DNA of 64,000 nucleotides from Azolla caroliniana. Lineage: Eukaryota; Plantae; Polypodiophyta. The notes beneath the pieces are model-generated. The model was not told the origin of the DNA and did not search any database. It saw nothing but the letters and a program-made list of their open reading frames with translations. The stretch covers positions 26,908,001 through 26,972,000 of the forward strand of contig JBHGNT010000002.1 of NCBI GenBank assembly GCA_043228905.1. Reading direction: 5' to 3'. The position numbers were made by a program, and so were the translations under genes. Shown here one piece after another: positions 15,225-41,100 of this stretch. Numbering within the stretch: the first letter of the stretch is position 1; every line of letters starts with the position of its first letter.

Positions 15225-15258
15225 CTGTAAAACTTTAGGGGCATGTTTGTAAATTTGG

Positions 15259-18200
15259 ATGATTAATGCGTACGTGGACACACACACTACACGTTTGCCG
15301 GCGACTGGGCGACACAATCTGAGGCGGAGTTTCCCGGGGAAATGTCGCAGGATTCCGGCGGAGATGCACAGTAGCGGATGGGTAGCAGTGAGCACAACGA
15401 GGAGGCCCTTGCCTGCCCCTGTCTTGATCCTACCTTGTCTCCATCCCGGTGCCAATTCTTGCAGGAAAGGTGCATTTAGATTCCTGAAACCTCATCATCA
15501 GTATGCCTCCCCTCATCCCCTCCATAATTCTATGCATCCCAGCTCTAGCTATGACTTTGTGTCTCTCCTCAAATCGTGTGCTGCGAACAGGGATCTTAAC
15601 AGGGGCCTTAATATATACGCTGAGATTTGCAGAATCCATACCTTCCAAGATGATGTTTTTATCGGGACTGCACTCGTTGACTTGTATTCCAAATGCGGCT
15701 TTCTTGTTCTGGCTCAAGAAGTGTTTGATAATCTTCCAGTCAGGAATGTGGTCACATGGAATGCATTGTTAACAGGATGTGTTGACACTGGTTGTGCTGA
15801 GGAAGCACTGGATTACTTTGAAGAGATGCATGTAGAAGGTATCCTCCCAAATTCTATAACGTTTGTTTGCATATTAAAGGCTTGTGGTAGCAGTGGAGCC
15901 GCAAGCAGGGGTCAGAAAATACACACTGAGGTTGAATTGTGGGGTTCACTCCAAATGAACATTTATGTTGGAGGCGCACTGGTTGACATGTATGCAAAGA
16001 ATGGGTGGCTTATAGACGGGCGCCATGTATTTGATAAGCAGCGATGTATCCGGGATGTAGTCTCCTGGACTGCCTTAATATCAGGATATGTACGACATGG
16101 GCACAATGAAGAAGCACTCAAATTGTTTGAAGACATGAAGCTTCAAGATGTCCATCCAAATGCTTTCACCATGGTTCACGGCTTGAAAGCTTGTGGAAGC
16201 ACAGGGGATGCAGTGAAAGGCCAACAAATGCACTCAGAAATTCAACAGAGAGGTTTAGAAGAGAGTAATGCTATTATTGGAAGTGCCTTAATTCATATGT
16301 ATGCAAAATGTGGCTTGCTTGGAGAAGCTGTGCAAATGTTTGAGAAACTTCGGCTTAGAGATTCAGTTTCTTGGACTTCATTAATCCATGGCTTTGTTAG
16401 TGATGGGCAAAGTGAAACAGCACTAATGTATTTTGAACATATGCAATATGAGGGCGTGCATGCAGATGCCAACACATTTCTTTGCATTTTGAAAGCATGT
16501 GGACGTATGGGAGCTATCGAAAAGATCATTGATATACATTCGGAGATTGAAAAAAAGGGTTGGTTGCAAACCGATATTTCTATTGGCAACTCCTTGGTGG
16601 ATGCATATGTCAGATGTGGTTGTCTTTCCAAAGCACAGGAAATATTTGACAAGCTTCACAGCCGAGATATCATCTCATGGAATACATTACTGGCAGGGTA
16701 TGCTGAACAAGGCCATGGAGAAGAAGTGCTGAAGTATCTAGATAAAATGCTACTAGAATATGTCGCTCCAGATGATATCACTTTTATTTGTGCATTGAAA
16801 GCTTGCGGCAGCATGCATGCCATCAATATTGGCCAAGATGTGCATGCTGAAATTGAACGGAAAGGTCTTTTCGAGGGGAACATTTCCATTGGTAACTCTT
16901 TGATTGACATGTATGCCAAATGTGGATTTGTTAGAAAAGCTCGAGATGTGTTTGACAGACTTCTTGTCCATGACATAATCTCATGGAATGCCTTAATTGG
17001 AGGATATGTTGCACGGGATGATGGGCAATCTGGACTCAACTGTTGTGAGCAAATGCAACTGGAAGGTATCTGTCCAGATGAGATCACAATTGTTAACATC
17101 CTAGGAGCATGTGGAGCTGTAGCAGCTCTACGGAAGGGGCAACAAATTCATGCTGCAATTGAAATAAGTAGACTGCTACATGGAGACCTCACAATTGGCA
17201 GCAGTTTGGTTGATATGTATACCAATTGTGGATGCACGGAGATAGCACAAGCTGTGTTTGATCAGTTTTCATCTCATGATGTTGTGTTTTGGAATGTATT
17301 AATCTTGGGATTCACAAGATACGGACTCAATGAGAAAGCCCTCACATATTTTGATCAGATGCATTTAGAGGATGTCCTCCCAGACATGGTAACTTTTCTG
17401 TCCTGTTTGAAAGCTTGTGGAAGCTTACATAACATACAAAAAGGTCGGGAAATTCATGCTGACATAGAAAGAAAGGGTTTACTGGGAAAAGATGTTGCAT
17501 GCAGCCTAGTTAATCTGTATGCAGAGTGTGGCTCACTTTTAGAAGCACAACAAGTGTTCAATAAGCTGCATGTCCAAGACGTGAACTCCTGGAATGCGTT
17601 AATCACGGGATATGTGGAATCTGAACATGGTGAGGAAGCACTCGTAAGCTTTGAACAGATGCAGCTTGAAGGTGTTAGTCCTGACTATACCACTGTAGTT
17701 TCTACGCTGAAAGCTTGTAGTAGCATACAAGCCACAGAGAAAGGTTGTGAAATACATGCTGAGGTGGAAAGGAAGGGGCTGCAAAACGAAAACCTCTTTA
17801 TTGCCAGTTGCTTGATTGAAATGTATGCTAAATTTGGCTTGATGTCAAGATCGCGCCATGTTTTTGATGCACTTATATCTCGAGATGTAGTTTTATGGAA
17901 CACACTTATCACAGGATATGCTGAGCTTGGAGATGGGGGAGAAGCATTGAAGTGTATCAAAGAAATGAAGCTTCAGGGTCTCTCCCCTAATTCTGTCACA
18001 TACATTTCTACGTTGAAAGCATGTGGTGCTATAGGAGCTCTGGACATGGGTCAAGAAATACATTCTGAAATTGAAAGAAAGAATTTACTTGGCACAGATG
18101 TTATCAGAAATACTTTGGTTGATATGTATGCCAAGTGTGGATCCCTTGCTGAAGCCCAGCAATTGTTGAAGAATCTTCCAGCTCATGATATAATTGCCTG

Positions 18201-18597
18201 GAATTCACTTATTGCTGGATATGCTCAGCTTGGAGAAGTTGACAATGTAGTCCATACGTTTGACTTGTTGCTATGCAAGGGTCTAAAACCTGATTCAGTT
18301 ACTTTTGTCATTCTTCTAACTGCATGCAGTCATCTGGGCCTAGTGAATAAGAGTGAGCATTACTATGAGTGGATGATTAAGGGGTATGGTCTTGCACCAA
18401 GATTTGAACATCACAGCTGCATGATAGACGTTCTTGGCCGAACAGGTCAATTAGAGAAGGCTACAACATTGATCAGGAGACTGCAGTGCAGTCCTGACCT
18501 TGTTATATGCCGTACAATTTTGGGTGCTTGTAAAAAATGGGGACACTTAGAACTGGGAAAGAAGATTTTTGAACGTGCTGTGCAACTTGATGAATAA
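15259..18597 (+). CDS. PLS-class pentatricopeptide repeat protein (organellar RNA-editing factor type), intronless, ending in the E region with no DYW domain
   Basis: 1112-aa ORF with repeated PLS triplets (VVSWNALI.GY / P.FVCILKACG / .LVDMYAKCG), then EHHSCMIDVLGRTGQL and ILGACKKWGHLELGKKIFERAVQLDE (E1/E2). The true start may be a downstream ATG such as 15364. Confidence 0.95.
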   Translation: MINAYVDTHTTRLPATGRHNLRRSFPGKCRRIPAEMHSSGWVAVSTTRRPLPAPVLILPCLHPGANSCRKGAFRFLKPHHQYASPHPLHNSMHPSSSYDFVSLLKSCAANRDLNRGLNIYAEICRIHTFQDDVFIGTALVDLYSKCGFLVLAQEVFDNLPVRNVVTWNALLTGCVDTGCAEEALDYFEEMHVEGILPNSITFVCILKACGSSGAASRGQKIHTEVELWGSLQMNIYVGGALVDMYAKNGWLIDGRHVFDKQRCIRDVVSWTALISGYVRHGHNEEALKLFEDMKLQDVHPNAFTMVHGLKACGSTGDAVKGQQMHSEIQQRGLEESNAIIGSALIHMYAKCGLLGEAVQMFEKLRLRDSVSWTSLIHGFVSDGQSETALMYFEHMQYEGVHADANTFLCILKACGRMGAIEKIIDIHSEIEKKGWLQTDISIGNSLVDAYVRCGCLSKAQEIFDKLHSRDIISWNTLLAGYAEQGHGEEVLKYLDKMLLEYVAPDDITFICALKACGSMHAINIGQDVHAEIERKGLFEGNISIGNSLIDMYAKCGFVRKARDVFDRLLVHDIISWNALIGGYVARDDGQSGLNCCEQMQLEGICPDEITIVNILGACGAVAALRKGQQIHAAIEISRLLHGDLTIGSSLVDMYTNCGCTEIAQAVFDQFSSHDVVFWNVLILGFTRYGLNEKALTYFDQMHLEDVLPDMVTFLSCLKACGSLHNIQKGREIHADIERKGLLGKDVACSLVNLYAECGSLLEAQQVFNKLHVQDVNSWNALITGYVESEHGEEALVSFEQMQLEGVSPDYTTVVSTLKACSSIQATEKGCEIHAEVERKGLQNENLFIASCLIEMYAKFGLMSRSRHVFDALISRDVVLWNTLITGYAELGDGGEALKCIKEMKLQGLSPNSVTYISTLKACGAIGALDMGQEIHSEIERKNLLGTDVIRNTLVDMYAKCGSLAEAQQLLKNLPAHDIIAWNSLIAGYAQLGEVDNVVHTFDLLLCKGLKPDSVTFVILLTACSHLGLVNKSEHYYEWMIKGYGLAPRFEHHSCMIDVLGRTGQLEKATTLIRRLQCSPDLVICRTILGACKKWGHLELGKKIFERAVQLDE

Positions 18598-28901: not shown

Positions 28902-29468
28902 CTTGTTCATAGGTCAAATAACATGGCTTAAGGCCTAAAGTGTATTTGATTAGAGAGAGAGAAGAAGAAGAGAGCATAGAAATGAGTGCACCATGAAGAC
29001 ACTAGCAATCCCAATAGTAGATAGTAGTGCATGTTAGTGCGTTCAATGGACCCCCATTATGGACGAATTGTGTGCAATAATGGGACGCCCATAAAATAAA
29101 TGTTTGAAGGAACTTATATGATGTAATGAGATTACCATTGGTAAGGGGAGCAAGATGAGATAAAGAGATTCTCTTAGGGAGGGTCATAATTAAAGCAACA
29201 AATAAAAGGTGGTACGAACCCCCATTAACTAGTGATGGCTAGGAGAACTAGCTACAATGTTTTCTAGTTCATTTGTCCTTGCATTATTGAGGATCCTTTT
29301 CTCATAGACCTTTAATGTTTGTCGTTGTTAATTTAACAATCATACAAAATCAAGAAAACTTTTATCAAGTCCCAAGTTGTGTTTTGCATATATAATAAGT
29401 TGCTATCATTCTCTTCATTTCCAGTACTAGTCTCTAGACATTCATTTGACACACAATTGTCGATAACA

Positions 29469-32400
29469 ATGGCTACTAGTAACAGCAGCAGCTCACAAGG
29501 AATACCTAAATCACATGGTAATATTTGCTACCCTCCCATGACAGTTGTCTCCAATGGTATCCTCCAAGGTGACATACCCCTCAACTTCGCCTTACCATTG
29601 TTGATTGTCCAGATTGCCCTTGTGCTCCTTGTCACAAGAACCATGGGCATCTTGTTCCGACCCATCAAGCAACCCCGCGTGCTAGCGGAGATAATTGTAA
29701 GACTACTATCCTAATGCATTTCCTTACTCTTTGTGTGTGTCTCCATGCAGTTCATAGGTTCTTGAGTTTGTTCTAAATTCACACTCTCTTCTTGTCCCAA
29801 AGACTTTTGTGTTTTGCTTATTGTTCTGACTGAATTCACATTCTCTTCTTGTCCCCAAGACTCTCTGTTTTTGTTTACTTATGTTGGTTATTAGTAGATA
29901 TGGCAGAAAAACATGGGAGGGTATGCGATTAAGGAACATGGATTCCCAAAGAGAGAGATAGGTGGACAGAGATACATAGGAGAGGAACAGAGGTTGTGCA
30001 TGATCTTAGGAAAGCGGGATATAGAGAGCCAACACTATAAGATTTATGTTGGTGGATTCTCCTGTTTGAACGGATGGATTGATTAGACAGCATTGGGCAT
30101 TCTAATGCATCGATTCTGTTGTCTATATTGATGCATGCATGTACATATTAGATTTGAGTCCAGATGCACTTTCTGATGAAAATGATGATGATGGCAGGGG
30201 GGTGTGGTCTTAGGTCCAACAGCATTGGGCAGAAACGAGCTATACTTGAAGACCATCTTCCCTCCTCAGAGCATGCCTTTGCTAGAAACTGTTGCCAACA
30301 TGGGGTTAATGTTCTTCATATTCATGGTTGGGCTGGGCCTCGATCTCGATGCCCTAAGAAAGACAGGCAAACACGCGCTTCTTGTTGCACTCATCGGAAT
30401 CGCGGTGCCATTGGCAGCATCCATTGGTGTGGCAGAGCTGGTGAGAAAGACAATATCCAAGGGGGTGAGACTGGTTCCCTTGGTTGTGTTCTTGGGTGCT
30501 CCCATCTCCATGAGTGCATTCTCCGTGCTGGTGAGGATCCTGGCAGAACTCAAGATGTTAAACACGGACATCGCAAAGTTAGCAGTGCCATCAGGAGCTT
30601 TAAATGATGTGGTCATATGGACACTATTGGCCGTCGGGGTAGCAACGGCTGGTCCCACGTCAGACCAGGCTAGCGCACTCACGCCCATTTGGGTGCTGCT
30701 GTGCGGTGCAGCTTATGGATTGATCATGTTGACGGTCGTGAGGAAATTGATGCGAATAGTGGCCGAGAGAGCTGTAAGTGCATCAAGAGCTCCAGGAGGT
30801 AGAGGCAGTGAGTTGTATGTGTGCATGACTTTGATGGCAGTCCTATTGGCTGGCTTGGTAAGTGATGGCATTGGGGTGCACCCCGTGGTCGGTCCTTTCC
30901 TGTTGGGGCTGGTCATACCCAAAGGCAACGAGTTCCCGAGGATGATGACAGAGAAGATGGAAGATATTGTCACAGGATTGCTGGTCCCTCTCTTCTTTGC
31001 TTCCAGTGGATTGAAGACAAACCTAGGGGCACTTCATGGCACCACCTCCATTGCTTTCCTGATCCTCTTCTTTGCTACGGCAGCAACTGGTAAGATAGTG
31101 TCCACATTCGTGACTGCAAGGCTCATTGGGTTGGACAATAGGCAAGCATTCATCCTGGGCTTCCTTATGAACACCAAGGGCCTTGCTGTTCTCATTGTTC
31201 TCAACATTGGTAGAGATCTCAAGGTAAATCATTTTCAGTACCAACTCACTCTAGATTTCCATCTATGTTTTTATGCTCTTAGAGATTTTTGAAGCAACAC
31301 ATTGATCCGGTACCATTGACATCTACATAAGTTTGTTTATGTATGTCTGGGCCAAGCCTAGAGGAGCAACTTCATTAAGAATTAATTCAAAACAATAATG
31401 CTGATTATGACATACCCTAATGGGTGGGATTAACGATGTAATCACAACAATGAAACATTATACCTAACCTAATGATTTGGTTACATGTTGGGGACTTCTT
31501 GTAATAATCACAATAATGAAACATTATACTGAACCTAATGACTTGGTTACATGTTTGGGACTTAGTGTAATACATTATTTAAATAAAGGTTTCTGCTTCT
31601 AACCATCAAAGGTTATGGGTTCTAATACAGGTATTGACAGATGAGACATTTGCCATACTAGTGGTGACATGTCTGTTAACGTCATTTGTAACCACACCAA
31701 TGGTGATAACATTATGCAAGCCTCTTGTTAACGATGGCGACATGTGTCAAAGGCGGAGGAGTGTGGAGGAGGTAACCATGGGAGCTATTGGTAGTGAACA
31801 AAAGAAGAGAAAAGACGGATTATATATCTTAGCATGTCGATACGAGTCACGCCAGCCAGTGGCTCCAATTACAAATACTACTACTGCTTGTGCCAACCTT
31901 CTGGAAGCTATGAGAGGTAGCATTCAAGCGACATGCCCGATCAAGATCTACACACTCTCCCTCCTGGACCTCGCAGACCGTCCATCCACTCTCTTGGACA
32001 TTACTGACATAGGATGCCCGAGTGATATCCCTGGCCCTTGTCCCTCCGATACTCCTCCCTTTCTCCCCTTTGTCTTCCCATCTTCTCCTCTCCTTCATAA
32101 GCCCGCAAACCACACCTTTGCAACACTCTCTGAAGTCGACTCCATGGATGAGGACATCCTCAAATTTGCATCGAAGAAATGCGCTTCTCTCATCCTCTTA
32201 CCTTATCATCGACCCTCCCATCACCTATTCCGTAATGGTTTCCATAACGTGAACCAAAAAGTCCTTGACCATGCTCCTTGTTCTGTTGCCATCCTAGTGG
32301 ATCCAGTTTCCATGGAAGTTACCCCATCATTCTTTGCCTTCAGTACTTACAAGGTGACGGTCTTGTTTATTGGAGGACATGATGATAGAGAAGCTCTTGC

Positions 32401-32896
32401 TATTTCCTTTAGAATGCTAGATCATCCTGGAGTTACCTTGAAAGTTATAAGAATGGTCAGTCCTCCCCAGGCCCAACATGATGAAATGGCTGGCCAGAAT
32501 CTTGCTATGAGTAGCCTCAAAGACTCATCGACATTTCTTGATGAACCTAAAGAGAAGAATCTTGATGATGATGCCATATCCAACTTTAAGGGAAAAGCAT
32601 CACAAGATCCATTTGTGTATGAGGAAGTGATGTTACGAGGACAAACATTGCTCGAGGACATAAAAGCTATCACAAAAGACATGAATGATGTTAATTTATT
32701 CATCGTTGGAAGAGGAAGCCTGAGGTCAAGACTAATACTTGGAGTTACAGATCAATGTCAAAGTGAATGCAAGGAGCTGGGACTTGTTGGGGATGCTCTA
32801 TTATCGATGGGGCATGATCGCCATGCATGCCTTTTGGTGGTTCAACAACATCCTTCATGTATAGACACAAAGATACGAACTTTGAGAAAACCCTAA
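29469..32896 (+). CDS. CHX: Cation/H+ antiporter, CHX (CPA2) family
   Basis: Exons 29469-29696, 30198-31223 and 31631-32896. Motifs: SNGILQGDIPLNFALPLLIVQI, KQPRVLAEII|GGVVLGPTALG, RILAELK, ND, LMNTKGL, HAPCSVAILVD, GGHDDREAL, ELGLVGDAL and LLVVQQ. Confidence 0.95.
29776..29877. repeat. Tandem duplication, 2 x ~57 bp, CHX intron 1
   Basis: AATTCACA(C/T)TCTCTTCTTGTCCC(A/C)AAGACT occurs twice. Confidence 0.8.
31437..31570. repeat. Tandem duplication, 2 x ~66 bp, CHX intron 2
   Basis: ATCACAA(C/T)AATGAAACATTATAC..AACCTAATGA(T/C)TTGGTTACATGTT(G/T)GGGACTT occurs twice. Confidence 0.85.
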
Positions 32897-34566
32897 TTGC
32901 CCTAATCATATATATTTGCACGACCATCATACATACATAAGTTTTGCATCTCCATAAGCATACCATTATGAAGATGTGAATCATTCCAATGCAACCAGAA
33001 CAGCCTCATCATCACATCCACCGGCTAGTGACATTATTTGAATGGCTAATATTTTGTCAAATGAAAGTTGATTACAAAGATTTCAAGTTCTTTCACACAA
33101 TAGTTCTTTGGCACGGGAAGACTGGAATGCCATGAAAAACATGGATCCATCTATGCTGTGAAAAGATTGATTTTCTTAAATGTGAGAAATAAAACGTTAG
33201 ATAGATATATATATGACATCTGCAGTCCCTCCCAAATTTGTTCAGCAGTAAACGTATAAGTTTGGGCAATGTTTTTCCCTAAAAAACTCCCTTCCAAAGA
33301 TAATCTCAAAAGGTTGCATCCTTATGCTTCGGGAAATATGGTAATAGGATATATTTTGTCTCCCATGAGAGTCTTGTAACCCCTTACCCCCTTCTGTGGA
33401 TGCCAATTATAAAAATGAGGGATAAAGGTGAAAGAGCAATTATGTACAAAAAAATGCAACACATCTCTATTTCCCAAGGTACACATGTGTAGTATGCTGT
33501 GACATTCTACATAGGAATCATAATGGAATCATTGTTTAATACCTTTACAGTAGACAAAATTGATCCCCCCACATATTTATGTGTTACGTTGATAAAAGTA
33601 TCACTGAAGGGAAAGAGTTAGTGTTAATAGTGATATCAATGCAAAGATTGGATATTCCAATGCAGAAGTTATAATTTTCACTCACGCAGAGATGTTTGCA
33701 TTTTGTTTTGTAGCATATAAGTTGCGGTGGGAACATTACACCTGAGGAATTCCTCTAGTATATTAGAATAAGTACATTTCTCACAATATCCCCTAACATG
33801 ATCAATTCCAGGCATGCTTTGGCTTCACTTCGACATTACTTGGTAACTTTATGAATTTGATTTACAGGTGTGCAAGCCACAAATCTGTTCTGGAATTTAG
33901 GCTCAACTTTCGAATTTTGCATCAAATCTAAGGTAGGATACACTAGTTAGTTCTAACAGCTCCGTTGTTGACATGCACAATGGTAGCAAATTCAAATGCA
34001 TCAGAGAGGTTCAAATGAATTAGTACGAGTGCCAGTGCGTACTCAACAGCTTCCTTCGAAAAATATGTAAAACACAGGTAGAACATGAATATACAGGCAG
34101 GACTGAAGTTAGGGCAGTCGCTTAACAATTGAATTGTGGATCATCTTTGTGAAAAGCAGCAGTACCCAGAATAGAAAAGCCAAAGAACATTATGAGAGTT
34201 CATAAAACAGAGTTTGTCCATTTTACAACATGGAAAGATAGTACAACAAAATCCACACATGAATGAGTAGGTGGAGCCGTGGTAGTAGTACATTAGTTTG
34301 GAATGGGTAGTAATACACTAGTCATACAGTAGTACAGCAGGCTAAATAGAGAGAATGGAATCATAGCTGGGATAATTATGCAGAAAGGATGGGGTCATCA
34401 CCTCAATACATTCGAACCCGCGACTTTAGATTCATAGCCTAGATGACTAAAGAAGGGCCCGTTATGATCTGTTACTGCAGATCCAGTAGGAACTGTAACG
34501 ACTTGTTGAATAATGGTCGGCCCATCACGGGATGAGCGGAACAGAAAGACAGAGAGAGATGGACAG

Positions 34567-35304
34567 TCACGAAGGCAAGCTGTGCAGGGAATCGAGCCAT
34601 GCGGTAGTGACAGGATAATCGAGGTGGAGGTCCGCATCGTTGAAGAGCGAGTCATCTTCTGGAAGGATCCATCCCACCTCCCATGACTCGCCGTCAACAG
34701 AATCAGCTGCTCCATCAGGTAGCGCAAAAAGCTCGGATGGGAAGAGTCCGCAGAAGTCGTCCTGATCGCAGGTGGAGTGGATGCTACTTCCGCAGGACTG
34801 AAACGCGTCACACTCGACCGCTTCTTGTCGATGCTGCACCCTTCTTGATAGCTTCTTCGCATGGCGATTCCTATCATCATCGGTGCCATAGCTTGAGTTC
34901 AGGCCGGAGGAATTAGGAGAAGCAGAAGCAGCAGGCAAGGAGACCTCATGGACAAGGCGACGCTTACGGTTGGGGAGCTGAGGCAGAATCATGAGGGGAA
35001 TCCTGCCTTCTTCTCCCTCCTGCGCCGTTTCGTCTTCTACTCCACCTTGTCCGTCTTCTCTTTCTTCTTCTTCTTCCTCCTCCTCCTCGTCGCTGGAAGA
35101 GTCGGTTGCATCAGGGTCTGTGCAGATGACCCGCACAACACGCTCTTTGGGAGGAAGTGCTGCTGCGGATGCAGATGAGCAGATGGATTTTGGGAGGGGA
35201 AAGGAAGCAGGAGCAGGAGCAAGGGGGGCGGAGGGGTGGAAGGACAGGGGGATGGATCTCTTGATGCGTCGAGAAACGGTCTTCGAGGGTTTGAGGAGAG
35301 GCAT
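34567..35304 (-). CDS. CRF (cytokinin response factor)-domain protein lacking an AP2/ERF domain, 245 aa
   Basis: Intronless ORF from ATG 35304 (MPLLKPSK...). CRF signature RVVRVICTDPDATDSSSDEEE...RKRRLVHEV, followed by an acidic C-terminus. No YRGVRQR/WGKWAAEIRD/WLGTF in the ORF or in the listed overlapping ORFs. Confidence 0.8.
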   Translation of the reverse strand: MPLLKPSKTVSRRIKRSIPLSFHPSAPLAPAPASFPLPKSICSSASAAALPPKERVVRVICTDPDATDSSSDEEEEEEEEEREDGQGGVEDETAQEGEEGRIPLMILPQLPNRKRRLVHEVSLPAASASPNSSGLNSSYGTDDDRNRHAKKLSRRVQHRQEAVECDAFQSCGSSIHSTCDQDDFCGLFPSELFALPDGAADSVDGESWEVGWILPEDDSLFNDADLHLDYPVTTAWLDSLHSLPS

Positions 35305-35408
35305 GGCGATGGCTATGGCTATGGCGATGGCGCAGAGAGACAGAGAGAGAGACACACACACACACACAGACAAACAAACAGGGGAGGGAGGAGGGGAATC
35401 GAATTAGC

Positions 35409-35499
35409 GCGCGAAATAGATGGGGTTTAGAGTCTACTGCCCTATTCGCGCCCTTTTTTCCCGCCAAGTGGTTAGGGTAGGCGAATCGTTTCGCGCCAA
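35409..35499. promoter_or_regulatory. Cluster of four E2F-consensus sites (WTTSSCSS) upstream of the CRF-domain gene
   Basis: GCGCGAAA 35409-35416 (TTTCGCGC on -), ATTCGCGC 35444-35451, TTTCCCGCC 35457-35465 and TTTCGCGCC 35489-35497. Confidence 0.75.
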
Positions 35500-35669
35500 T
35501 TTTTGGGGTGCCGCCAACACATCAGAGCCAGGCTGGCAAACTGAGTGTGTTCTCTTTTTGACTCGTTCCTCGGAGCTTAGACATTGGCATGGCGTCCTTG
35601 TAAGTCGTGGCCATGTATGTCCCCATGGCTTTCACTATGAGTTTGCATCTGCTCATCATCGTGGCTAAA

Positions 35670-37400
35670 GAATTTCTAAAAACCTTCCAAACGTAGGGCG
35701 AATATCTGAGTCTACTAACATGAAGTTAAAACCAACTCTTGAATTGTAAGAGGATTTCATATGAACTTCTTGAGAAATGCTACAAGGGAATATGTAGTTT
35801 CCTATGGGGAATGCAAAGAACATGAGTGGTCATGGAATTGGTAATAATGAGTTAGGAATAACTACATATTAACACCCTTCAAGGAGCTAAAATGGCCTAT
35901 TAAACTACGTAAGAGAGGGAGAGAAAGATTACATCTTAAAATGTTCTATTGTTTCTAAGAACATCAAACCAATATAAATACAACTAAATATGTCTAGGGT
36001 ACTTTTAAACATCTCCAACATTGGTTATCCCAATCTTGAGGGATGATTAAAGCAAGGGAAACACCGTCTGTGTTAGGTGATAATGACCCTTCCTATCGAT
36101 GACAAGGGTGACTTGGTCGTGGTGTAAACAATCATGGCATATATCATGACATATTGTGATTGCCCAATCTATTGTTGTTCCATTTAAGTGTTGTGGTCAA
36201 TATCCCACTTTGTGTAGCCCTTTATTGACTTGTAACACAAAAAAGAAATAATGGAAGTAAAGGATGAATGATGGTTATTTGTTGGTGGGTTATTCTAGTC
36301 AAGATCCTACTTTATATAGCTCTTTATTTACTTCTAACACAAGAAGTAAATGATGTAGGAGACAGATGTTATAAATTATAATGGTTATTTGTTGATAGGT
36401 TGTCGTGGTCGTATTATTATCTATTGACAACTTTTCTCTATGTCCCTCAAGTTCTAGCAACACAAGTCCCAAAGATCAATTGTCTTCATACATCCATGAC
36501 CTTGTGTTGTGAACCAAATCTATGTTCGAAGAGTTAGTGGTATATCTCTCTTATTTCAGTAAAAACAACATGATAGCAAACATAACATTCTTCTTAATCC
36601 ACCTCCCTAATTGGGAAATCCATGCGACCATAAATTTATGTGTATAACCATTTATCTCAAACTCTAACTAATAAAATAAGGTAAATAACTGGCTTGCCTT
36701 AACATAGTGCATAGTATAAGGCATATATGTCTATAAGTTTTGATGATAAGTCCCTCTAATGAAGTGTGGGAAAACAATGCATTGTAGTGGCCCAGCTTCC
36801 TTCTCAACAATGTTGAGGGATTGATCCATGTTCTTTCGTGTCCAATTTAATGATATTAGTTTGGATCACTCTATCCTCTTTTACTTTAATCATGTTTGGA
36901 TGTGCGCAATCTAGGCGACTTTGGAATTAGGGTAATGCATTCGTACTTGCATCATGTGGATGTGGTCAATATTTCATCACCAACAATGTGACTTTCATGT
37001 ATGCACATTGATTTGCTTTAACAAGGTAACTCTTGAGTTCCAAGTCTCACAAACCATCATGAGTAGATAGGACCCATGAATATACCTGAAGGTTAGACAA
37101 GTTATAATTTACCCATTTAGTCTGAAGATATTCTTGCTTTCCACTTTGTTTGAGACGAGGGTATGGCAAGTGCCTAAGTGACACTCTACCTCGAATGCGC
37201 TCGATTGTACATATTTTCTATAGCCTTGACGTGCATATCTATCCTTGAGTAGAGTTTGGATTGTGAAGAAGAAGATGGATTAAACAACACCTTTACATTG
37301 CTTACAATAGATACACTTTCACATCGATGCAAGAGACCAAAGCTAGTGGGCATGCATGCTTGTTTTAGTCTAAACATGCTAGCCATGATCTGATATACAC
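35670..37400 (-). mobile_element. Degenerate LINE 3' portion (ORF2 C-terminus and 3' UTR)
   Basis: Homologous to 40381-41230 and 44120-44830. The minus strand shows a broken Cys/His-finger region (EECYVCYHVVF.EIR..YH.LF). Shares the family tail motif. Confidence 0.7.
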
Positions 37401-38175: not shown

Positions 38176-41100
38176 ATGGCTGCCTCCACAGCGACTTCTG
38201 TTGCTTTCGACTACCTCACTATGAAGCATCCCAGCTTATTTATATTTCCACAGGAGCTAACATCGTTATGCAAGGCTAATTCTAGATCACATCTCTACCT
38301 ACTCAAGAAGAAGAAGAAGAAGAAGAAGAGCAATGGGTGTAGGCCTCCTTGCATTGCCTTCTGCCTTTGCACCTCGACTAGTCCCTCTGATCCTCCAGGT
38401 TCACCTGCCCGTGGCCTTCGATCCATCTTTGAGTATATCCCTCCACTCTCAGACAACGACAACAACGATGATGACATAGTCAAGTGGGACTTCCCCCAAC
38501 TCATCCAATTCCTTCAAGGAGAAGGATCAACAATGATTACATTGCAAGGTTACGATGAAACACCACCCTCCGGGAGTACCCCAGCGAGGGATTCCACAGA
38601 TTTTTCAAAGGAAGAAGGATCAATTTTAGTTAAAGAAATTGAAGGGGAGATAAGTAGTAGTAGTAGTGTTTTGGGAGTTCATGAAATGTCAAAGCTGGGA
38701 AGTTCAATATCAGCAGTAGAGATGAAAGGGGAGAGTATGCAAGAAGTAGAGCTTGAACTCGCAATGAAATACAAGAATGTCCCCCATGCTCTGTGGACTA
38801 GGCTTCTGAGAGGTTTGTGCAGACACGGAGAAGTGGAACTAGGCATAGAGTTAATGAAGTGGATTCGTAAACACAAGCTCATTAGGGCATTGTATGATAT
38901 TGATCTGTTGAATGCTGTCATAATCGAGGGTCTTGGTGCGAGTGACAGGATTAACGAGGCAATGTCTTTTGTAAATAATTCAGATGTGAAGGGAATGCAG
39001 ACTTACAATGCATTGATGCAGGTATGCTGGAGGAGGAAAGAGTATTTGGGGCTGCTTGACTCGGTTAGAAGGATGAGGGAGGAGGGGCTGAAGCCTGACA
39101 TCGTTAACTACACATTTGCAATCCAGGCATGTATCAAGAGCAAGGTAGGGAGTGATGCAATTGTGGAGCTATATGAATATATGTTGGAGGACCAAATCCA
39201 GCTGGATGAGAAACTCTACAATCATGTGATTTATGCACTTGCATCTGCAGCTGATGCCAAACAAAGCATACGCCTTTTGAAAGATATGAAAGATGCAGGG
39301 TTTATTCCAAATGGTGCTGCCTATACCTTTATTATTTCTGCTCTAGGTTACACAGGGAGGATGGCTGAGGCACAGGAAATTTTGAATGAGATGAAATCTT
39401 ATGGGCGGATACCCAAACAAAGAACATATAACTCACTAATTAGAGGATATGCAAGAAAAGGGCAGCTAGATTTAGCTGAAGAGGCCATGCGTTCTATGAT
39501 GGAGGACAAAGTGCAACCTGATGAGCAGACCTACAACATACTCATTGATGTTTGCGTAAATGCGCAGAACCTGGAGAAAGCCTGGGCTTTATTCCAAGAG
39601 ATGAAAGCTGCAGGGTTGCAGCCCAGTGCATTTGTCTATGGTAGGTTGATGACTGCATTCAAAGCAGCTGGCCAATGGTTTTCGACAATGAAAACCTTAC
39701 GTAAAATGGAAGAAGCAGGCATTACTCCAAATAGGCACGTGTATAATATTGCAATAGATGCACTTAGTAAGCACAGGAAGGCTCAAAAAGCACGGGAACT
39801 ATTCAAGAAAATGAGATCCGAGGGCATAGAACCTGATGTAATAACATGGAACTCACTTATAGAGTGCCATTTTAGGGCAGGTGAAACAAATATGGCATTG
39901 CAACTCTTTTCTACGATGAAAGAAGAAGGATGTAAGCCGAGTTCCCACTCTTACAACATTCTCATATATTGGTTAGGGTGCCTAAAGTGTTGGGACGAAC
40001 TCAAGTGCATTCTTGAAGACATGAAGGGCATTGGCATTGTTCCAAATGCTGTTACATATACTACATTAGTTGATGTGTACGGTCAATCTGGGAGATTTCA
40101 GGATGCCTTTGAGTGTTTGGAGACGATGAGAACGCGATCATCAAAGCCTGAAGCAAGTGTTTATTGTGCATTAGCAAATGCGTATGCTCGACAGGTATGT
40201 GAATTTTGTACTGCTTATGTTTATAATGATGTGTAATAGAAGTACTCTAGAATAATTGCTTCCATATATCCAGCGCGAATATATTCTTCATGACAGTGCC
40301 AATCACTTTTCAATAAGTGGTAGAATCCTGGTTTGTGAACTTTCTTTATGAGTTTACATCTCCTCATAATCATTGCTAACCAATTTCTAAAAACCTTCCA
40401 AACACAATGCCAAGATTATTTATATTAATATAAAACTGAAACAAACTCTTAAATTGCAGGAGGATTGGAAATGCTACAAGAGAAAATGTAGTTTCATATG
40501 ACAAATGGTGAGAACAAGAATTGGTAATGGTTGGCAAGAAAGAAAGAAAGACATATTAATGTGTTTTAAGAGTGGCCTATGAGACTGAACATGAGATTAC
40601 ATCTTAAAATGCTGTCTTATTTCTGAGAACAACAAACCAAATTAAAGGCTACACAAAAATCTAGATAACTAGGCACTTAAGATTCGAAATTTCAATAGAC
40701 TGAAACGTTCGCCTTCAAAATATTTCCATCCTTGTCCGATTCAATATGGAGAGATCTCCAATGTGAGGGTGCTGGGTGATAATGGTCTTTATTTGTCGTT
40801 AAAGAAGGTGAGGGAGCTGGTTCAGATGGCTGTGTACAATGTGTATGACTCATTGCTATTGCCTGTTCTATGGACTGTTTCGAGTGTTGTGGTCGATATC
40901 CCACTTGTGTAGCCCTTGATTGACCTGTCGTGTGAGGAAGGATGAAGTCAATGAAAGTTGTGATGGCTCTTCATTGATGAGTTGTAGTTGCATTCTTGTC
41001 CCTCAACAAATTTTCTCTATGTCCCTTGAGTTCTAGTAAGAAGCGTCCCAAGCACGGTTGATCTTTATATTCCATTGCCGTTTTTTGTAGGCTGGAGCCT

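Follow-up and report, generated by a model that had tools for sequence, protein, structure and literature searches.

The window analysed here, a 64,000-nucleotide stretch of Azolla caroliniana DNA, carries on its minus strand a single-exon open reading frame (34567..35304) whose translation, the 245-residue protein P0001, combines a CRF domain with an acidic-aromatic tail and is without an AP2 domain. Translation of the minus strand from 35304 to 34567 yields the intact 245-codon frame, with the motifs quoted for it, that a first-pass annotation of this DNA had described. Upstream, the frame stays open as far as 35403 without an earlier in-frame ATG. A probable 5' UTR with dinucleotide repeats and a CpG-rich start region, assigned from the sequence, occupies 35305..35391, and a probable 3' UTR occupies 34199..34566 (both on the minus strand); near-identical contigs from public runs continue beyond the stop codon to 34199 (run X1) and to 34239-34276 (X3, X10 and X2). 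The open reading frame is CpG-rich, as had been noted, with an observed/expected ratio of 0.74 versus 0.38 for the 64-kb window, and the 2-kb bin with the highest ratio in the window is 34001-36000. On the plus strand, a plant cation/H+ antiporter (CHX-type) gene with at least 3 exons is located at 29337-32896 (Pfam), and the contigs listed for it are mostly copies less than 90% identical. Pfam confirms a P-type PPR gene at 38176-40236 (plus strand), and a 1114-codon open frame at 15253-18594 (plus strand) resembles, by eye, a long PLS-type PPR protein. Neither a tandem copy nor an informative repeat was found within the window.

All segments of P0001 described below are encoded on the minus strand. 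The CRF domain begins with a core, RVVRVICTDPDATDSSSDEEE, at residues 52-75 (35080..35151) and is completed by a basic second half, RKRRLVHEVSLP, at residues 113-124 (34933..34968), which corresponds to the RLVHEI-type block of canonical CRFs and could possibly serve as a nuclear localization signal. A long acidic spacer within the domain (residues 76-112; 34969..35079) sets the core-to-second-half distance at 53. The place of AP2 is taken by a 62-residue linker of low conservation (34747..34932), which shows no similarity to AP2 and contains a basic patch (34825-34869). It leads into a conserved acidic-aromatic tail at residues 187-231 (34612..34746), a predicted activation-type domain. An AlphaFold model of P0001 contains only two short strands (residues 56-59 and 119-122), one from each half of the CRF domain, and a short helix at the end; with a mean pLDDT of 54 and so few elements, it is too weak for a fold search.

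Cytokinin Response Factors (CRFs) constitute ERF groups VI and VI-L (Rashotte and Goertzen 2010, PMC3095348), and membership was judged by an N-terminal CRF domain and an AP2 domain. The first of these is present in P0001: an independent HMM trained only on 9 canonical CRF proteins assigns it 47.6 bits, and both halves of its CRF domain align with those of 46 other CRF proteins, which bears out the CRF signature recognized earlier. Like CRFs in general, P0001 carries both halves N-terminally, has an acidic C-terminal region and is encoded by a single exon. Its core is identical in type to that of Sphagnum and Psilotum CRFs, the named carriers of the exact core type VRVICTDPDATDSS, which occurs in 31 of the 127 proteins compared. 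The spacer is unusual, as the core-to-second-half distances of P0001 and its distant relative P0002 (53 and 50, respectively) are the longest among 79 measurable proteins, the other 77 having a median of 22 and a maximum of 38. Searching PDB sequences with the CRF profile returned nothing significant (best E 0.12). The best ESM Atlas matches for P0001 are AP2/ERF clusters (0.86-0.87), and for P0002 no usable match was obtained when AP2 clusters were left out.

The second feature, an AP2 domain, is missing from P0001, as the first-pass annotation had also claimed. A Pfam scan of the protein detected no family above the cut-off and no AP2 match at E<=1. The AP2 HMM search of all frames proposed in that annotation, run here in six frames over the whole 64-kb window, reached at best -4.9 bits, whereas true AP2 domains score 88-116 bits. 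Profile-profile comparison of the 62-residue middle segment with 69 AP2 domains gave a probability of 0.06%, and 80 of 100 column shuffles scored equally. The basic patch had been placed where AP2 would begin, and its position stands: it starts 83 residues past DPDATD, within the range of canonical AP2 starts (59-218, median 77, n=95). An AP2 relic is not detectable there, and we rejected this interpretation of the linker: the AP2 HMM finds no domain, and the profile-profile comparison remains at chance level.

Contigs assembled from public runs provide an independent view of the locus. Eleven runs contain part of the stretch; none of the 11 is recorded as RNA, and RNA is guessed for most. The contigs of four of these runs, each under a different organism code, were aligned to it. 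A single 819-nt contig of X10 spans 34534-35294 without gaps and with 2 differences, and X1 contigs, each with 0-2 differences, together cover 34199-35294. A further 110 and 58 letters of the X1 and X10 contigs, respectively, are unplaced and presumably come from upstream of 35294, where a repeat was skipped in the alignment. The gapless match across the open reading frame indicates that the assembly is correct here and, should the runs be RNA, that the transcript is unspliced. The five listed contig joints all fall inside the antiporter gene, the contigs cross the open reading frame without a joint and the window holds no AP2 exon, in agreement with the earlier remark that none lies downstream. 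In the four runs, contig cover is zero in bins 31439-33931 and 35317-35593, to which we assign no evidential weight. It is very improbable that the missing AP2 is an artefact of an assembly deletion or of an unrecognised exon. A likely gene-model version of such an artefact does occur in Ipomoea, where the protein P0055 equals P0051 minus its AP2 segment, but P0001 was read directly from DNA, AP2 is absent from all 64 kb and the contigs of four runs agree with the DNA, so this explanation is largely refuted. We conclude that P0001 is encoded by a real AP2-less CRF-domain gene.

The X1 and X2 contigs also contain a second copy, approximately 86-94% identical to the P0001 gene, which may be a paralog or a homoeolog. 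The listed pieces of this copy cover regions other than the CRF core. The piece at 34674-35011, which corresponds to residues 98-211, has 46 differences (46/338) and a 6-nt insertion, and since it spans the place of AP2, the second copy is without AP2 at that position as well. Over the last 44 codons and 27 nt of UTR (34540-34698) there are 10/159 differences, and in the 3' region (34410-34563; a piece also present in X10) there are 22/154. The tail piece is therefore less diverged than either the 3' piece (p=0.025) or the middle (p=0.015). X2 contains 12 nt of gaps across 35167-35294; as the listed indels within the open reading frame total 6 + 12 nt, the frame is preserved. In the 3' region, 44-46 unplaced letters precede 34408-34411 in X1, X10 and X2 contigs, which suggests that the allele in the window may be without a short stretch that other samples carry.

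A more distant relative was identified by searching 1.84 billion representatives, which returned two matches at E<=0.001: a canonical grass CRF and P0002, a 207-residue metagenome protein encoded on a JGI/IMG contig of 1915 bp. P0002 matches P0001 with an E of 4e-24 and about 40% identity and has the same layout: its CRF core is followed by a long acidic spacer, AP2 is missing and the tail is acidic-aromatic. For regions chosen after looking, the two proteins agree at 22/24 positions of the core, 6/12 of the second half and 21/45 of the tail, compared with 14/62 of the linker, whose length is nearly equal in both (62 residues in P0001, 61 in P0002). The two tails align with a score of 97, which none of 10000 shuffles reached, whereas the P0001 tail scores no higher than 44 with any of 122 other CRF tails. 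A single-sequence word search retrieved none of 947 candidates at E<=0.1, and a two-sequence profile retrieved 9 of 7989 at E<=10. Scanning 7 of 64 metagenome parts gave 6 loci from 600 stretches, none with a P0001-type tail, and genome and viral scans for loci found none. Orthologs that all keep AP2, which the first-pass annotation had named as evidence against its reading, are not what these comparisons reveal, as AP2 is missing from both relatives that share the tail, namely the second copy and P0002. Based on one distant relative, the comparison points to an AP2 loss that is old and has been maintained by selection. The simplest reading of the sequences would be a single loss from a canonical CRF in the common ancestor of P0001 and P0002, followed by selection on two modules, and a single origin is also suggested by their shared, longest spacers; separate losses in the two lineages are possible.

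Separate losses are also part of an explanation that we consider improbable, namely that P0001 is a decaying CRF duplicate with little or no function whose likeness to P0002 derives from an AP2-bearing ancestor. AP2-less CRF debris does exist: three moss-type CRF copies from metagenomes (L004:4815-5120, L005:1335-1700 and L006:1306-1671) have an early stop, a frame change and no AP2. However, their cores are decayed and their frames broken, whereas both are intact in P0001; the second copy has frame-keeping indels and lower divergence in the tail; and P0002 matches P0001 in layout and linker length at 40% identity. The marks of a pseudogene (a broken frame, decayed motifs and no constraint) are not seen in P0001, whose frame and core are intact, and the divergence of the second copy is uneven. 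The open frames of L005 and L006, approximately 100 residues long, are of microProtein size and pseudogene-like.

Our CRF-domain profile matched 1706 proteins among 7987 scored candidates, and among the best 120 of these 1706 matches four are without PF00847: P0002, P0006, P0052 and P0055. The sequence of P0006 (Psilotum) stops where AP2 begins, P0052, likely truncated, originates from a 946-bp contig, and P0055 (Ipomoea) is P0051 with an internal AP2-containing segment removed. The P0055 cluster, from Ipomoea batatas and I. trifida (NCBI nr), consists of four annotated CRF4-like proteins of 254-256 residues, and P0055 matches I. triloba P0051 on either side of a gap of ~106 residues, which may reflect a false (predicted) intron, alternative splicing or a true deletion. 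Two further CRF genes have AP2 behind a frame change (L001:229-570) or an in-frame stop (L002:3971-4201), each representing an assembly error or a pseudogene. Several top matches (P0012, P0003, P0028 and the Physalis POS1-named proteins) far outscore single-domain CRFs, and P0003 contains two CRF and two AP2 domains; judging from these sequences, duplication is another way in which the CRF layout has been remodelled. Remodelling is likewise seen in CRF7 and CRF8, which have no C-terminal third (PMC3193008, excerpt), but these proteins and the Physalis POS1-named proteins all keep AP2 (PF00847), unlike P0001. No AP2-less CRF is described in the literature searched, which was mostly open-access text without supplements, where a mention in a gene table is possible; the available passages of PMC3875448, PMC12115143, PMC7718014 and bioRxiv 10.64898/2026.10.13.758753 do not mention one. 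AP2 serves as a filter or check in CRF work (PMC6399210, PMC6171139 and PMC10002603, all in excerpt), and family surveys that discard proteins without AP2 would miss AP2-less CRFs.

The C-terminus had been described as acidic in the first-pass annotation, and the tail indeed fits a composition rule for acidic activation domains. According to the Kotha-Staller rule, a 39-residue tile qualifies if it has a charge <= -9 and >= 7 W/F/Y/L on the published boundary (PMC10550315, excerpt). By this rule, which is based on human proteins and has modest precision, 29 tiles qualify in P0001 (residues 178-244) and 26 in P0002; 70 of 119 canonical CRFs also qualify, versus 71 of 1000 whole-protein shuffles. 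The tail is thus predicted from its composition to be an acidic activation-type domain. P0001 contains no EAR-type motif, and the SP(T/V)SVL motif found in about half of CRF members is absent. By eye, homology to the tails of canonical CRFs looks plausible, and the compositions are similar; alignment lends it no support, 407 of 1000 shuffles scoring equally for P0001 (130 of 1000 for P0002). C-terminal activation by CRF5 is reportedly a result of Striberny et al. 2017. A review terms the CRF C-terminus a transactivation domain (PMC11062136, excerpt).

The role of P0001 is best approached through its CRF domain. That this domain mediates CRF-CRF and CRF-AHP interactions, as the first-pass annotation had stated, is in print for the bare domain of Arabidopsis: in BiFC assays CRFD, a 60-residue fragment of Arabidopsis CRF2, bound CRF1-8, AHP1-5 and ARR7 (Cutcliffe et al. 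2011, PMC3193008, excerpt). Like CRFD, P0001 is a CRF domain without AP2, and retained pairing is a reasonable expectation from the Arabidopsis result; it differs in being natural rather than an artificial piece, in its length of 245 residues and in having a conserved tail. A predicted complex between the CRF domains of P0001 and a Psilotum CRF, calculated with alignments unused, scored 0.02. The reading we tentatively prefer is that P0001 acts as a DNA-free partner, pairing with normal CRFs and bringing a predicted activation domain to their targets. By analogy with the Arabidopsis data, its CRF domain would pair with normal CRFs and perhaps with HPt/AHP proteins; the basic patches suggest that it would be nuclear; and the tail, given its composition, would bring activation to the targets of the normal CRFs. 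In a heterodimer of P0001 and a CRF, a single AP2 would be combined with two acidic tails, and P0001 would thereby tune CRF output. The 30-residue acidic insert in the CRF domain could alter pairing. The sign of the effect is uncertain, as CRF9, a canonical CRF, can be a repressor (PMC10002603, excerpt).

At high dose, P0001 could also titrate CRFs or co-activators, which leads to a second explanation. P0001 might be a dominant-negative decoy in the manner of LITTLE ZIPPER or ID proteins, drawing canonical CRFs (or HPt/AHP proteins) into complexes with poor DNA binding, its tail setting stability or squelching co-activators. We regard this as somewhat less probable, although P0001 does have an interaction domain without a DNA-binding domain and sequestration is the standard mode of microProteins (PMC5381583, excerpt). 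A pure decoy would not need a conserved 45-residue tail, P0001 has no repressor motif, and the literature examined contains no demonstration that CRF DNA binding needs two AP2 domains. The conserved tail shifts weight from a pure competitor towards a cofactor, and its activation-type composition, together with the absence of an EAR motif, tips the balance slightly to a tethered co-activator; both modes may coexist, depending on dose.

Less probable still is a role unconnected with canonical CRFs, in which HPt/AHP proteins, response regulators or an unrelated factor are the partners of the CRF domain while the tail engages a separate protein. Such a role would fit the lack of alignment between the tail and its canonical CRF counterparts, the unusually long spacer and the binding of AHP1-5 and ARR7 by the CRF domain (PMC3193008, excerpt); however, the core of P0001 is nearly the same as in CRFs of non-seed plants, which fits retained CRF-type partners.

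Compared with known systems, P0001 is CRF-derived, yet it has no AP2 domain, a spacer 30 residues longer, no SP(T/V)SVL motif and a tail unalignable to canonical tails. It resembles trans-microProteins (LITTLE ZIPPER, miP1a/b, MINI ZINC FINGER, KNATM and ID; PMC5381583, excerpt) in being a separate, transcription-factor-derived gene product that has kept the interaction domain and lost the DNA-binding domain. Unlike them, it is 245 residues long and has a second conserved module and no TOPLESS/EAR-type motif. MicroProteins are further defined by a limit of 140 residues (PMC5381583, excerpt) and a single domain related to larger proteins; the CRF domain is related to the larger CRFs, but P0001 exceeds the limit and has the tail as an additional module. 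The interpretation in the first-pass annotation is thus upheld for a real AP2-less CRF-domain gene, and its microProtein-like label is not. In having an acidic, aromatic-/leucine-rich activation-type stretch and needing a partner as its tether, P0001 is like CITED2 and VP16 (PMC10550315, excerpt), to which it is unrelated in sequence, the likeness being an analogy only. It is best filed among transcription-factor derivatives without a DNA-binding domain, and as this class is already well known, the surprise is limited.

The finding bears on what CRF-domain interactions are for. The role of CRF dimerisation and CRF-AHP binding has so far rested mainly on BiFC in Arabidopsis, and P0001 would offer a direct test of their purpose if it is kept by selection. 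We see about an even chance that P0001 represents a conserved, undescribed subfamily of AP2-less CRFs in non-seed plants, probably ferns, which would give the CRF network its first natural arm without DNA binding, one that dimerises with canonical CRFs or HPt proteins and sets their output through its activation-type tail. If true, such an AP2-less CRF, maintained by selection, would be the first case in vivo of a CRF domain used independently of DNA binding.
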